From a bacterium (GTDB taxonomy: Bacteria > Bacillota_I > Bacilli_A > RF39 > UBA660), in the NCBI GenBank assembly GCA_030524925.1, contig JAUNFS010000003.1, positions 2,146 to 66,145 on the forward strand: 64,000 nucleotides of DNA, in the 5' to 3' direction. Positions within the stretch are counted from its first letter, which is position 1, and each line of letters starts with the position of its first letter. The notes under the pieces were generated by a model that saw only the letters and a program-made list of their open reading frames with translations, was not told where the DNA came from and made no database searches. The translations under genes were made by a program, and so were the position numbers. Positions 28,801 through 35,768 of the stretch are shown here, piece by piece.

Positions 28801-29156
28801 ACAGAATTTTTTTCTGCCAAATAGATTTGATGCATCTTTATAAGTCCAGCATCATAACCACCATTATCAACTGATAACTCTTTACCATAATATAATGTTT
28901 TAGGAGTGTTTCTGTTTGGGTCAATACAATATAAGTCAACTTCAGTGCCTTCAATTGTTGTTTTGTGATGCCAGCTAGTTGTTGTATATCCATCAGTAAA
29001 TACATAACCAGTAGTTTCTGTTGGGTTATCTGTAAGAGGAGTTTCTAATAAACAGTAGCCATTAGCTGCTGAAGGTCTGCCATCACATATACCATTTGAG
29101 GCATCAACATTTATAGTTACAAATAAAAGAGATATTAATAATAGATACTTCTTCAT
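25875..29156 (-). CDS. 1093-aa secreted Cys-rich protein, N-terminal thioester-domain-like region, no cell-wall sorting signal
   Basis: Signal peptide MKKYLLLISLLFVTINVDAS. LYCIDPNRNTP...NSVDYIDINTAVRFF parallels the adhesin motif at 12089-12223. About 29 Cys, including CPTCCFGAECCQGPDC. C-terminus lacks LPxTG and a TM. Confidence 0.6.
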   Translation of the reverse strand: MKKYLLLISLLFVTINVDASNGICDGRPSAANGYCLLETPLTDNPTETTGYVFTDGYTTTSWHHKTTIEGTEVDLYCIDPNRNTPKTLYYGKELSVDNGGYDAGLIKMHQIYLAEKNSVDYIDINTAVRFFNAGLGYGKSGGAEWESIEKYINGANAFEGLEPKYPKFPTLKTDQNYQASQAIYCAGKLAGGSSAFCRTFLSGYGGIYTAETKDYNIEFVVDGTPEDVPGSSYGYHKKVKVKVEGIEDIKNAISSYGLAYLNPEITFEKVSCSKGECKANISEGTDLLNGDDTFELEVYGSYEEIASNPKITVEIDYKYFFPFGASGVGLLVESPNESNQRMVGYLDSMHHKLTFDLDITLPNVCKYENGQLKLGNKNATIEEYINAGCCEGLENFNLSKSQEEIYNEQCKDQDHVNLIMDCQGECASDGSTVNQMPSDSSVEQVNRDGLLSKLKKYEDKVMNNQATLDSFQNYTKNAMQYWRDKTFNNNNNIETNEYCKLYTTENNHMIYPMTTASTSGRFFVFTKDSDGQYSQPEVKGEITAFFYTAYDVWQRDYLAAVRDEKAKFDAWQKEANLQDAIDDSASHPMNSSCWYCSGGRDPEDNHCLGWSQEKYITYTGRTQDDYYYGVYNSGVRGKETVSWTTSQICAVSPKPSTNVVGAHNAYVKAYEKRQGLEEKKTSCQKANSNFKNSWKYILDPDLSFTYTQQYYDSVSGNTKVVEQEVEFVKSVESDGKYWTHVSTLPNTSGATTNSTNVNYKDTSGKHEGPLYGKLGANDYSKGYNTAYENVEETDRGEADSEKTGKADLYYKPTVGYYSLVPSGLYITDQQSYSYPDVLEIGYVFNVQITNYQGKYRTWFTIENNGHLEIEPKGKSKNESNVQYRINQKLAEGNVFESLCVYCNREVLYDRDCPTCCFGAECCQGPDCDGRESEDFYPEYIYRTINPSNMDPNNRKDSGDLGDNWSNAKGEAAESRIKQIGLKDGMFDDTPDSETLEYVFNLDTKTMQEIKKYNKNSNYYDWSSGYSGGLFSCNSDGKECISSFVTRYASNTSGRQKYKYYFASDNQFKVGTMRQLLPDGYPDVNIDDDSIIYP

Positions 29157-31376: not shown

Positions 31377-31607
31377 ATGTATTACAATTATCAAAATTAT
31401 CCTAATATGAGTGGTGAAAGACAATTTTGGTTTCCTTTTTTACTTGGAGGACTTGGTGGAGCTGCTGTAGTATCTGCTTCTAGACCAAGACCAGTGTATG
31501 CTGTAAATAATATGCCATACCAAGGTAATTATCAAATGCCACCTACTATGCCACCTTATGGATATAATTACTATGGAGGATATAATTATTATCCACCTTA
31601 TAGATAA
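31377..31607 (+). CDS. 76-aa Tyr/Pro/Asn/Gly-rich protein with one central hydrophobic segment
   Basis: GAGAGGAG SD. MYYNYQNYPN...FWFPFLLGGLGGAAVV...PPYGYNYYGGYNYYPPYR. Confidence 0.45.
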   Translation: MYYNYQNYPNMSGERQFWFPFLLGGLGGAAVVSASRPRPVYAVNNMPYQGNYQMPPTMPPYGYNYYGGYNYYPPYR

Positions 31608-32694: not shown

Positions 32695-32931
32695 GTGATT
32701 AATGTGAGTAATTTATATAAAAATGAGTTTGATGAAGATATCGTGAAGTATACATTTCCAATAAATGAGAGAAGTAAGGATCCTTTTGAGGTGCTTCCTG
32801 CTAGAATTAAGTTTAAGGTTAATGGCAAAGTATCAGAGAGAATTATAATTGGTGCTACGGATAATTATATTGTGACAAGTTTTAAGGAAGTAATTGATAA
32901 AAAAAATGTTTCAGATATTGAAACATTATGA
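32695..32931 (+). CDS. hypothetical 78-aa protein
   Basis: GTG start after AAAGGTGA. No motif recognised. Confidence 0.35.
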   Translation: MINVSNLYKNEFDEDIVKYTFPINERSKDPFEVLPARIKFKVNGKVSERIIIGATDNYIVTSFKEVIDKKNVSDIETL

Positions 32932-33687
32932 GATTTTACTGTATTTAAGTATGTAATAGTCAATTGTTGGGATAGTATTTATTAGAAATTCGTAGTTATT
33001 AAAATACATAAATATTTCAGATGGATTTCCTAGCGAATAGTATCCTCTTGGGGCATCATAAGCTTGTTCTAGGGTGTCGTCAAAATATTTTATGAAGTAT
33101 TTATTAGCTTTATTTATTTTATTTAGATATGATTTAGCTTTTTTATCATTACCCATTTTATAGTATAGAGCAAATAATGGAAATAACATTTCTAGAGATT
33201 CTTCGGGATACTTTTTGTAAAATTTTAGCATTTCGCTTTCTTCTTCTAAACAAGCAAGTAAGGCCATTTTTAAATATCTAGTACCAGTATTGTCATTTTC
33301 ATTTAATCTTAGTATTTCATCGCATACACTAAGGGCTTGTTTTATTTTGCCATCATTTGCTAGGTAAGATGCTTTTAAATAAAGGGCTCTAATGTAGGGT
33401 CTTGTTTCAAAAACACCGTAAAATATTCCTATATAATCTTTTTCAAAGTACCCTTCTTTTGTTAATTTGTTTTTTTCTTTTTCTATTGAATCATTTAGGA
33501 GTTTATCTCTTTTTAAGGGATTTTCTTCCATACGAATTTGAAAAAGTGTAGCATCTAAGAAATCCGGGCAAATTTTAAGGGCCTCTTTTGATAATCTTAG
33601 AGCTTCTTTCTTGGTTTTAGCATATTCTGCTGTTTCTAATAAGTCAAATGCTTGAGCTTTAGGACTTATTTCATAGTCTGTTTTCAT
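32926..33687 (-). CDS. TPR-like helical repeat protein
   Basis: Helical repeats with A/L/Y spacing (ALRLSKEALKICPDF, ALYLKASYLANDGKIKQALSVCDEILRLN). Confidence 0.5.
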   Translation of the reverse strand: MKTDYEISPKAQAFDLLETAEYAKTKKEALRLSKEALKICPDFLDATLFQIRMEENPLKRDKLLNDSIEKEKNKLTKEGYFEKDYIGIFYGVFETRPYIRALYLKASYLANDGKIKQALSVCDEILRLNENDNTGTRYLKMALLACLEEESEMLKFYKKYPEESLEMLFPLFALYYKMGNDKKAKSYLNKINKANKYFIKYFDDTLEQAYDAPRGYYSLGNPSEIFMYFNNYEFLINTIPTIDYYILKYSKIS

Positions 33688-33738
33688 TATAATACCTCTT
33701 TTCTACTTATTTAATAACCAATCAATTTTTTGAATTTA

Positions 33739-34698
33739 TTATTCGTAAACTTTATTAAAATATTCTTTAATCTTGTTAGTATTAATTGTTTTTTTATTTT
33801 CAGTATTAGTCCATGGTTCTTCGTCATGAGTTAAATTAATCAAGGTTCCAGCTTCCATCTGTCCATAGCTTGATACAACTAATTCTATTATTTTTTTTAG
33901 ACCATCACATATAATACAACTTGCTTTTGGCGTAGAAATTGGGTTACGTCCTTTGTATTTTTGATAAATGGCTTCTATTACTGGGCCATACTGCCACGCA
34001 ACTATATTATCGGAATATGCTGGTTTATCATAAATCCTTAGGGTTAATCCCTGTATATAATATAATAATTTTTGAAGTTTTAATGGCGTAATGTATTCTG
34101 CTTTAGCACAGTTATCTTCTATTCCATATTTTTTGCTAACGTTATCTATTTGTGTGTTATATTCAATAATTAACCAATTAGCAACATTGTCAACTGTTTC
34201 TGTTTTGAAATCCAAATTAATATAGTCATTAATATTAAAATTCGCAATTTTATGATGTTTTAATTTTTTTAAGGCAATAACTTTATTTAGAAATTTATTA
34301 AAGTCATTATTTGATAAATTATTTTGATTTTTAATAAGTAAATTATACATTATATCAGGATCTTCACTTAATTTAATAATTGAATCAACTGATTCGGTTT
34401 GAATAGAACCATTTTCAAAACGATGAATGGTAATTTCTCCAACGCCAATTGCTAAAGCAAATTCTTTTTGATTCATATCATATTTTTTTCTTATATCTTT
34501 TATTTCTGATGATGTTAATAAATTCACTTGCTTTTTATAGAGATCATATAACCTCGTATCATTTTCAATTTCAATATTTCTATCAAATATTTCTTCACCT
34601 GTTACTGGGTCAATTTTGTAATATTCTTCAAATTCTATATTGATACCCTTAACATTTGCTTCTACTTTTCTTATTTTAACATTTTCTCTTTTATCCAT
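33739..34698 (-). CDS. antitoxin: MqsA-like N-terminal/HTH region fused to a Panacea (DUF4065/SocA) domain
   Basis: IRKKYDMNQKEFALAIGVGEITIHRFENGSIQTESVDSIIKL aligns by eye to the MqsA HTH. LKLQKLLYYIQG...AWQYGPVIEAIYQKYKG is the DUF4065 core. Confidence 0.65.
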   Translation of the reverse strand: MDKRENVKIRKVEANVKGINIEFEEYYKIDPVTGEEIFDRNIEIENDTRLYDLYKKQVNLLTSSEIKDIRKKYDMNQKEFALAIGVGEITIHRFENGSIQTESVDSIIKLSEDPDIMYNLLIKNQNNLSNNDFNKFLNKVIALKKLKHHKIANFNINDYINLDFKTETVDNVANWLIIEYNTQIDNVSKKYGIEDNCAKAEYITPLKLQKLLYYIQGLTLRIYDKPAYSDNIVAWQYGPVIEAIYQKYKGRNPISTPKASCIICDGLKKIIELVVSSYGQMEAGTLINLTHDEEPWTNTENKKTINTNKIKEYFNKVYE

Positions 34699-34709
34699 AA
34701 CTATTCCTC

Positions 34710-35018
34710 CTAAGTTTCATCCTCGTGACAAGATAAAATTTTAATTTGATTATTTTTATATTTTAACTTAATATAAAAAATAACATCTGGTTTTATCTCC
34801 TTTTTAAAGATGAATAATTCCTCCCCTGGGTAATCACGATCTGGTTCTGGACCTTTAAATAAATCTTCTACTTCTAAACTTGCAATATAATCTTCAATAT
34901 CATATTGTGATAGTCCGTATTTTCGCTTAGAATTTTTATTTTTTTCTGTTGGAACCAAATCATAATTCTTAAATTCTATGGATGATTTTATTTTTGCTAT
35001 TATTTCTGATACATCCAA
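34710..35018 (-). CDS. MqsR-like toxin (102 aa)
   Basis: YGLSQYDIEDYIASLEVEDLFKG...VIFYIKLKYKNNQIKILSCHEDE parallels E. coli MqsR LGLDFDGMCNVIIGLSESDFYKS...QVYLKITVIHDVLIVSFKEK. The toxin gene comes first, as in mqsRA. Confidence 0.6.
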   Translation of the reverse strand: MDVSEIIAKIKSSIEFKNYDLVPTEKNKNSKRKYGLSQYDIEDYIASLEVEDLFKGPEPDRDYPGEELFIFKKEIKPDVIFYIKLKYKNNQIKILSCHEDET

Positions 35019-35150
35019 TTTTAATCACCAATAATATTATACATTGTTTTTGCTAAATTATCAATTGATAATTTAAAATTTATATTACATTCTATTTTAT
35101 GCTTTGTCAAGCTATTAATATACACTTTTTCCATATAATAAAAAAGAGGC

Positions 35151-35768
35151 CTAACCTCTTAATATTTCTATGCTTTTTTCATAGTCGTTAGATTCACAGA
35201 TGAATGAGCCACTGATGGCCATATCAGCTTTTTTTACTAGTTTGATTGTTTCAGCATTGATTCCACCATCTACTGCTAGAATGTAATCGCCAAGGTTATT
35301 TAGCTTATCTATTTTCTTGGTCATTTCTTCTATAAAGGTTTGGCCACCTTTTCCTGGATGGACAGTCATTATTAGAACTTCATCTATTCTATCTAAATAT
35401 GGTTTTATTTTTTCTACACTGGTTTCAGGATTAAGACTGATACCAGCTTTGATTCCATAAGAATGAATTAAGTCAATAATTTCATTTACTTTATCGGTTG
35501 CTTCTACATGGAATGTAATGCATTTAACATTTAAGTGAGCTAGGCCTTCAATATAACTTTCAGGATTTAGCACCATTAAATGAATATCTAAAAGTTTACT
35601 TGTATGTTTTGCTAGGTTTACAATGTCTTCCACACTGTAATTTTTTTGACCAGCAAATTTTCCATCCATGATATCTACGTGCAAGTAGTCAGCACTTGTT
35701 TCATCTATTTTTTGAATTGTTGTGATATCGTCATATTTACTTTTAATAAAAGAAACTGCTATTTTCAT
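35151..35768 (-). CDS. rpe: ribulose-phosphate 3-epimerase
   Basis: LHVDIMDGKF, HLMV, HVE, MTVHPGKGGQ, DGGIN. Confidence 0.85.
   Translation of the reverse strand: MKIAVSFIKSKYDDITTIQKIDETSADYLHVDIMDGKFAGQKNYSVEDIVNLAKHTSKLLDIHLMVLNPESYIEGLAHLNVKCITFHVEATDKVNEIIDLIHSYGIKAGISLNPETSVEKIKPYLDRIDEVLIMTVHPGKGGQTFIEEMTKKIDKLNNLGDYILAVDGGINAETIKLVKKADMAISGSFICESNDYEKSIEILRG

Follow-up and report, generated by a model that had tools for sequence, protein, structure and literature searches.

Toxin-antitoxin (TA) modules in which an MqsR-type toxin is paired with an antitoxin carrying a Panacea domain (PanA) have been described in several bacteria, and here we compare with them a two-gene locus in a stretch of 64,000 nucleotides (nt) of contig JAUNFS010000003.1 (GTDB lineage Bacilli_A; RF39; UBA660), the whole of which is called the window. 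The locus encodes a toxin of the MqsR family followed by an antitoxin that combines an MqsA-like N-terminal domain, a helix-turn-helix (HTH) domain and a C-terminal Panacea domain. Pairs of PanA and toxin (PanAT) were concluded to belong to the complex-forming type II systems, MqsR-like was the most frequent recognisable toxin domain beside Panacea antitoxins (n = 90), and HTH N-terminal regions were found in 343 PanAs (Kurata 2022, PMC8832971). The accessible part of Dataset S1 of that study lists pairs of HTH-PanA and MqsR-family toxin in toxin-then-antitoxin order.

In the MqsR:PanA pair of B. fungorum the antitoxin consists of a zinc-binding domain (ZBD), an HTH and Panacea. Either the ZBD or ZBD-HTH neutralises MqsR, Panacea or HTH-Panacea does not, the HTH mediates dimerisation, and Panacea is dispensable and was proposed to be a sensor (Ernits 2023, PMC10440598). 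The catalytic residue of the B. fungorum toxin is Y97. In some PanAT pairs, Panacea itself neutralises the toxin (PMC10440598). For the E. coli MqsR/MqsA system the four zinc-binding cysteines of MqsA were described as structural and perfectly conserved, and MqsR residues K56, Q68, Y81 and K96 were reported to be required for toxicity (Brown 2009, PMC2791442). Degradation of MqsA by ClpXP is gated by zinc occupancy (Vos 2021, PMC8808172).

The locus in the window has the toxin-first two-gene module of B. fungorum MqsR:PanA, the MqsR-fold toxin and the same antitoxin order of MqsA-N-like domain, HTH and C-terminal Panacea. The first-pass annotation had regarded such a hybrid as unusual; this does not hold, as MqsR-like toxins are the commonest recognisable Panacea partners (PMC8832971) and the ZBD-HTH-Panacea arrangement was tested in B. 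fungorum (PMC10440598). The architecture of MqsA part and Panacea paired with MqsR is already known and tested. In contrast to published MqsR:PanA, the window system has a zinc-less N-domain, a toxin of compact size and a candidate operator that is different and highly conserved. The Bacillus-type antitoxin, checked on a B. thuringiensis plasmid homologue (~28% identical), keeps both CxxC knuckles and accompanies a toxin of ~140 amino acids (aa), whereas the window system has no zinc cysteines and a 102-aa toxin with a KGPEPDRD motif. The HTH-PanA and MqsR pairs of Kurata 2022, including the validated L. rossiae MqsR:PanA, also have the toxin first and an N-terminal HTH on the Panacea antitoxin, but they come from RefSeq genomes and the present clade from metagenome-assembled genomes (MAGs) of gut Bacilli, which was not found among the accessible Dataset S1 entries.

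E. coli MqsR/MqsA (3HI2, 3GN5) shares the toxin-first order, gives the best structural match for both window proteins and follows the same plan, with an N-terminal toxin-binding domain and a C-terminal HTH on a promoter palindrome. The equivalents of MqsR Tyr81 and Lys83 are conserved in the window toxin and K96 is replaced by His98. A Panacea domain is missing from E. coli MqsA, which, unlike the window antitoxin, possesses the four-Cys zinc site, and its operator (AACCT-N3-AGGTT) differs in sequence from the window palindrome. Two further systems are more distant. The PAD1 or pseudo-ZBD domains of CapRel and toxSAS antitoxins, likened here by description, also have a zinc-finger-like, Panacea-linked neutralising fold without the canonical zinc cysteines, but they neutralise toxSAS toxins and not MqsR. 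Caulobacter SocA/SocB (type VI) has the Panacea/DUF4065 domain in common; the window toxin is not SocB-like, SocA lacks both an HTH and an MqsA-N part, and the match to SocA lies far under the equivalog cutoff.

We read the locus, with a probability of about 0.8, as a chromosomal TA cassette of type II and, within the MqsR:PanA systems already published, as a variant without the zinc site. Judged from its sequence, the cassette is almost certainly functional.

Results

Identity of the toxin and the antitoxin

Both open reading frames (ORFs) were present on the minus strand as first described, with the toxin 5' of the antitoxin and an intergenic gap of 11 nt. The toxin matched the Pfam hidden Markov model (HMM) MqsR_toxin (PF15723) over profile positions 8-95 of 95 (E=8.8e-5, 23.3 bits). 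The same model was matched (E<=0.01) by 42 of the 51 aligned members of the toxin family, and the homologues of the toxin fell into 103 clusters. An AlphaFold2 (AF2) model of the toxin was obtained with a predicted local distance difference test (pLDDT) of 95.1 and a predicted template modelling score (pTM) of 0.85. In a Foldseek comparison of this model with the PDB the top match was 3hi2_D, E. coli MqsR (TM 0.67/0.74, root-mean-square deviation (rmsd) 2.4 Å, 92 columns), and the next matches, the toxins RelE, YafQ, BrnT and YoeB, reached a TM of only ~0.4. The toxin assignment of the first-pass annotation is thus backed by both fold and HMM. Sequence-only PDB searches with the toxin returned nothing but spurious matches such as DeoD, SmpB and ITPR2, and a fold comparison was needed.

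With hhalign, a narrow toxin profile aligned with E. coli MqsR (sequence verified against 3hi2_B) over 27 columns and no more, and a profile to which the toxins of the Cys-containing relatives had been added gave a co-linear alignment of 86 columns (E=0.004). The residue map from E. coli MqsR to the window toxin was K56 to K55, Y81 to Y82, K83 to K84, S94 to S96 and K96 to H98. Y82, K84, S96 and H98 are invariant within the toxin clade, and the window toxin has every family-invariant residue. Toxin length follows antitoxin type, with ~100-113 aa and a GPExDRD motif in the Cys-less clade and ~130-143 aa in the Cys-containing relatives. Because the sequence evidence is weak but consistent and the structure evidence is clear, we conclude from the model that the toxin has an MqsR fold with a partly altered active site; its RNase activity is inferred by analogy. 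With PADLOC the toxin matched none of the defence-system models, and the antitoxin gave only generic HTH matches.

The antitoxin matched NCBIfam TIGR03830, the MqsA family ('CxxCG_CxxCG_HTH'), at residues 7-118 (76.2 bits, above the cutoff of 61.8, E=1.8e-21), Pfam HTH_3 at residues 66-112 (29 bits) and Pfam SocA_Panacea (PF13274) at residues 208-296 (66.9 bits, above the cutoff of 25.7, E=3.9e-18). Pfam MqsA_antitoxin scored 28.8 bits, slightly under its cutoff of 30. The motifs LKLQKLLYYIQG and AWQYGPV, on which Panacea had been proposed, are present. NCBIfam SocA_antitoxin (NF047745) matched residues 200-303 (E=5.6e-18) at 65.2 bits, far below its equivalog cutoff of 190 bits. The AF2 model of the antitoxin, built from 116 sequences (pLDDT 92.8, pTM 0.83; block pLDDT ~89-92 at residues 11-50), has strands at residues 7-16 and 19-29, a long helix at 40-57, an HTH bundle at 63-123, two long helices, and Panacea at 205-318. 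Its top match in the PDB was full-length E. coli MqsA (3gn5_A; 119 columns, probability 1.00), with a large rmsd because the domain orientation differs. The HTH structurally matched the C-domains of HigA2 and MqsA, and no solved Panacea structure was matched by the model in Foldseek. The MqsA-type N-domain and HTH with all zinc cysteines lost, as proposed in the first-pass annotation, were therefore found again in profile and structure searches. Mean column identity was 0.63 for the zinc-less N-domain, 0.63 for Panacea and 0.72 for the HTH, the most conserved domain.

Both genes are under purifying selection, as the ratio of nonsynonymous to synonymous substitution rates (dN/dS) was 0.09-0.17 in the toxin gene and 0.10-0.29 in that of the antitoxin. 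The features of the locus are collected in Table 1.

Table 1. Features of the TA locus and its borders, in window coordinates.
Feature	Position	Strand	Basis or details
Cassette of ~1.4 kb common at DNA level to TA loci of other genomes	33734..35140	-	blastn
Toxin gene, 102 aa, TTG start	34710..35018	-	ORF; MqsR-family (RelE-superfamily), putative mRNA endoribonuclease
Antitoxin gene, 319 aa, ATG start	33739..34698	-	ORF; pseudo-ZBD, HTH, helical linker, Panacea
Zinc-less MqsA-N-like domain, codons 1-58	34525..34698	-	two long beta strands and long helix; no Cys
XRE/MqsA-type HTH DNA-binding domain, codons 59-125	34324..34524	-	HTH_3; structural match to MqsA and HigA2 C-domains
Panacea (DUF4065/SocA-like) domain, codons 201-319	33742..34098	-	PF13274; confidently folded in AF2 model
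Sigma-70-like promoter	35036..35064	-	-35 TTGATA (35064..35059), 17-nt spacer, -10 TATAAT (35041..35036)
Perfect 22-bp palindrome, halves TAAATTATCAA and TTGATAATTTA	35054..35075	.	candidate operator for antitoxin HTH dimer
Toxin ribosome-binding site GGTGAT	35024..35029	-	sequence; 5 nt ahead of TTG start; kept in related loci
Antitoxin ribosome-binding site AGGAGG	34706..34711	-	sequence; overlaps toxin stop TAG (34710-34712)
Remnant of 3' end of DUF4143/AAA_14-type ATPase gene, ~24 nt	33703..33726	-	in-frame ...IDWLLNK*; right breakpoint, 12 nt past antitoxin stop
rpe terminator-like hairpin	35144..35160	-	left boundary of cassette

Promoter and conserved palindrome

The promoter matches the consensus at 11 of 12 positions, and its layout is identical in related loci. 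These related loci, 1.3 Mb of which were fetched altogether, are designated by L-numbers. The -35 box lies within the palindrome, whose core of 16 bp, ATTATCAATTGATAAT, occupies positions 35057-35072. The core occurs exactly once in the window, and ~0.29 occurrences are expected there by chance at up to 2 mismatches. With at most 2 mismatches it was found 5' of the toxin gene in all related loci examined (35/35), at antitoxin identities down to ~43%. A scan of the fetched loci as a whole (1.3 Mb) gave 72 matches, most of them directly 5' of the module. Homologues from Erysipelotrichia that have no toxin gene carry two copies of the core, 25 bp apart, 5' of the antitoxin-like gene. As copies of the core precede these toxin-less homologues, the site travels with the HTH and not with the toxin. 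The comparative support for the palindrome as candidate operator is strong, and the HTH of the antitoxin probably binds it.

Three other observations concern operator-like sites. A second one in the window, ATTATCAACTGATAAC at 28863-28878, has 2 mismatches to the core; it may be due to chance, since two matches were reached in 4 of 100 shuffles, or be an additional target of the antitoxin. In L006 (10002-10703) and L007 (5975-6676) a separate protein of the HTH_19/HTH_3 type, 233 aa long and faintly similar to MqsA, is encoded 3 kb 3' of the TA module, and inside its gene is an operator-like sequence, TTTGTCAATTGATAAT, with 2 mismatches (L006:10565, L007:6538). The viral contig L124 from IMG/VR contains at 949-2231 a partial MqsR-like ORF and then an antitoxin of 348 aa that has a single CxxC and ends in a divergent, Panacea-like part, and an operator-like site, ACTATCAATTGATAGT, is located at 696, upstream of this phage-associated pair.

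Zinc site and toxin gene in related loci

The window antitoxin has no Cys in residues 1-70. In the same region of its 120 closest relatives (57-99% identity) 116 proteins had no Cys, 4 had one and none had a CxxC. Alignment with the Cys-containing relatives shows a deletion in place of the first CxxC knuckle, and D30..T33 of the window protein stand where the second would be. When the whole library was searched, 88 of the best 150 cluster representatives were full-length proteins, and two CxxC were found in 53 of these, one in 8 and none in 27. In a crude neighbour-joining tree, from which the N-domain columns were excluded, 50 of the 57 Cys-less sequences formed one pure clade, which suggests that the zinc cysteines were lost mostly once, with possible additional losses. 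As far as these sequences go, the loss of the zinc site is a trait of a whole conserved clade and not of this copy alone. We infer that the zinc-gated ClpXP control of E. coli MqsA cannot work in the same way in such an antitoxin.

Homologues without a toxin were found in Erysipelotrichia. L042 (2906-3900), and also L040, L043-L048, L050 and L052, have a Cys-less ZBD-HTH-Panacea homologue with ~33% identity and no MqsR-like gene upstream. In six genomes (L042-L047) this homologue is located 3' of a gene for a sulfatase-like membrane protein of ~685 aa, and in L042 it is followed by a metallophosphatase gene. The Panacea motif is degraded in the toxin-less homologue (TSAQGPY), which may be a domesticated repressor.

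Borders and distribution of the cassette

Homology to other TA loci in blastn has its left end points at 35140-35074 and its right end points at 33739-33708, so that what the loci have in common is a cassette of ~1.4 kb with candidate operator and promoter, toxin and antitoxin and nothing else. The end of rpe (35151) lies within the terminator-like hairpin that forms the left boundary. Genes flanking the TA module vary between genomes, and in almost every locus of the close clade the toxin is directly 5' of the antitoxin. A fixed position of the module 3' of rpe was considered and rejected, as only L029 shares the rsgA-rpe position.

At the right border, two close relatives of the window (L176 and L177; tetratricopeptide repeat (TPR) protein 93% identical) have an intact DUF4143-type ATPase gene directly 5' of the TPR gene, and L177 407-620 aligns with window 33726-33512 at 92.6%. 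Because only ~24 nt of this ATPase gene are left beside the TPR gene in the window, and it is intact in the close relatives, the sequences indicate that the cassette entered by replacement. The inserted cassette of the first-pass annotation is supported by the sharply bounded DNA homology, the differing flanks and the ATPase-gene remnant, and replacement describes the event more exactly than insertion. A gene of the same DUF4143/AAA_14-type ATPase family was seen directly 5' of the TA module in L003-L005. No convincing terminal repeats or target-site duplication were detected at the cassette edges; a weak inverted match of 15 nt (33735-33749 / 35128-35142, 80% complementary) is probably chance in DNA of 25-30% GC.

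The TPR gene 3' of the cassette (window 32926-33687, minus strand) encodes 253 aa and is frameshifted in L177. Most TPR homologues (~60% identity) have 291 aa, with 37 more N-terminal residues, and are located after rpsP-khpA and not after rpe. Truncation of the TPR gene by the insertion was rejected as an explanation, since the closest relatives without TA at that site also have 253 aa. Further along, a 76-aa ORF in which Tyr, Asn, Pro and Gly are very abundant (window 31377-31607, plus strand; MYYNYQNYPNMSG...YGYNYYGGYNYYPPYR) overlaps the end of an FtsW-like gene on the opposite strand, and gene calls for it are present in three related contigs (L089, L176, L177).

The closest genomes with the module were those of uncultured gut Bacilli, namely 'Mycoplasma sp. 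CAG:877' (80%), MAGs from Hadza, rabbit and chicken, and Candidatus Onthousia. More distant relatives were found in Erysipelotrichia, Clostridia and Fusobacteria. Distant relatives are located on plasmids (Cys-less on Fusobacteria pZRK30-1, Cys-containing on B. thuringiensis megaplasmids) or in prophages such as Lactococcus bIL311. An 'MqsA family' match on a C. estertheticum plasmid has both CxxC motifs and no toxin upstream, and was set aside as uninformative. Among IMG/VR viral contigs and phage records there was no member of the close clade, and the matches were mostly to Panacea alone or to distant relatives.

Discussion

In the mechanism that we propose for a zinc-less MqsR:PanA cassette, a single promoter with its -35 box in the 22-bp palindrome would drive the toxin and then the antitoxin gene, and free toxin would cut mRNA and so stop translation. 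The zinc-less, beta-rich N-terminal domain, a homologue of the MqsA-N/ZBD, would bind and neutralise the toxin, and the HTH would dimerise, bind the palindrome and repress the operon. The weak TTG start of the toxin and the strong AGGAGG site of the antitoxin would favour an excess of antitoxin. Panacea would not be the neutraliser, as the first-pass annotation had assumed, but a regulatory or sensor module controlling toxin release. Because the ZBD alone neutralised in the B. fungorum truncations, in which Panacea alone and HTH-Panacea did not (PMC10440598), we somewhat favour the N-domain as the neutralising part by analogy; that Panacea acts as a sensor is, on the same comparison, a tentative idea which we would sooner doubt than accept.

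Several results weigh against a functional MqsR-type pair. The toxin, at 23.3 bits, did not reach the gathering cutoff of 26.2 of Pfam MqsR_toxin. An NCBIfam search with the toxin gave no match, and MqsR was not found for the toxin in the PDB by sequence alone, either with the single sequence or with a 51-sequence profile. K96, a residue required for toxicity in E. coli, is an invariant His (H98) in the toxin clade, K55, the equivalent of E. coli K56, varies, and Q68 falls in an alignment gap. The neutralising role given to the N-domain is transferred from a homologue that has the zinc site and is only ~28% identical. In three related loci, moreover, the toxin ORF is frameshifted or truncated beside an intact antitoxin (L015:2583-2985, L019:2669-2875 and L012:2740-2988), so these loci, at least, can do without the toxin. 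TA modules usually decay in this manner, with the toxin broken and the antitoxin intact.

The broken toxins, together with the toxin-less homologues that are conserved in Erysipelotrichia with two operator copies, would also fit a pair that is no longer a TA system, in which the antitoxin serves chiefly as a transcription factor that has an operator of its own, and the small ORF is carried along without harm. The toxin ORF in the window is, however, intact with every family-invariant residue, its dN/dS is low (0.09-0.17) and in almost every locus of the close clade the toxin keeps its place directly 5' of the antitoxin, which makes this explanation highly improbable. Less far-fetched, yet unlikely, is that the N-domain is a degenerate remnant and Panacea itself binds and neutralises the toxin, as in PanATs without accessory domains. 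There are PanAT pairs in which Panacea neutralises directly (PMC10440598), purifying selection acts on Panacea here, and the zinc site that Brown 2009 (PMC2791442) described as structural and perfectly conserved is gone. But the N-domain is predicted confidently (block pLDDT ~89-92 at residues 11-50) with the MqsA-N topology kept, it is as conserved as Panacea across the clade down to ~30% identity, and Panacea by itself did not neutralise, and nor did HTH-Panacea, in the ZBD-HTH-Panacea homologue that was tested (PMC10440598).

The NCBIfam SocA_antitoxin match (residues 200-303, E=5.6e-18) could point to a type VI system of the SocAB kind, with the Panacea protein as a proteolytic adaptor that delivers the toxin to ClpXP and not as a stable inhibitor. 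The score of ~65 bits is far under the 190-bit cutoff, the toxin is MqsR-like and not SocB-like, and PanAT pairs are complex-forming type II systems (Kurata 2022, PMC8832971), and we give this possibility hardly any weight. The zinc-less MqsR:PanA cassette therefore remains the reading that we prefer.

A wider and rather improbable extension of this reading is that the zinc-less N-domain marks a distinct MqsA-type branch without a zinc- or oxidation-gated ClpXP switch, in which sensing by Panacea, for example of a phage product, would release the toxin, and that the near-invariant operator in Bacilli, Erysipelotrichia, Clostridia and Fusobacteria reflects a shared HTH-DNA code. If this is true, the shared code would permit cross-regulation between copies and would have allowed those without a toxin to turn into host repressors.

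The hosts of the close clade are uncultured gut Bacilli with small genomes, in which TA biology is to our knowledge essentially unstudied. The locus belongs to a large natural clade of MqsA domains free of zinc (27/88 full-length representatives and all 120 closest relatives), which offers a ready test of the need for zinc in the neutralisation of MqsR and in the regulated turnover of the antitoxin. The conserved candidate operator makes autoregulation by PanA-type antitoxins directly testable, and the toxin-less copies that keep this operator may represent the domestication of an antitoxin.

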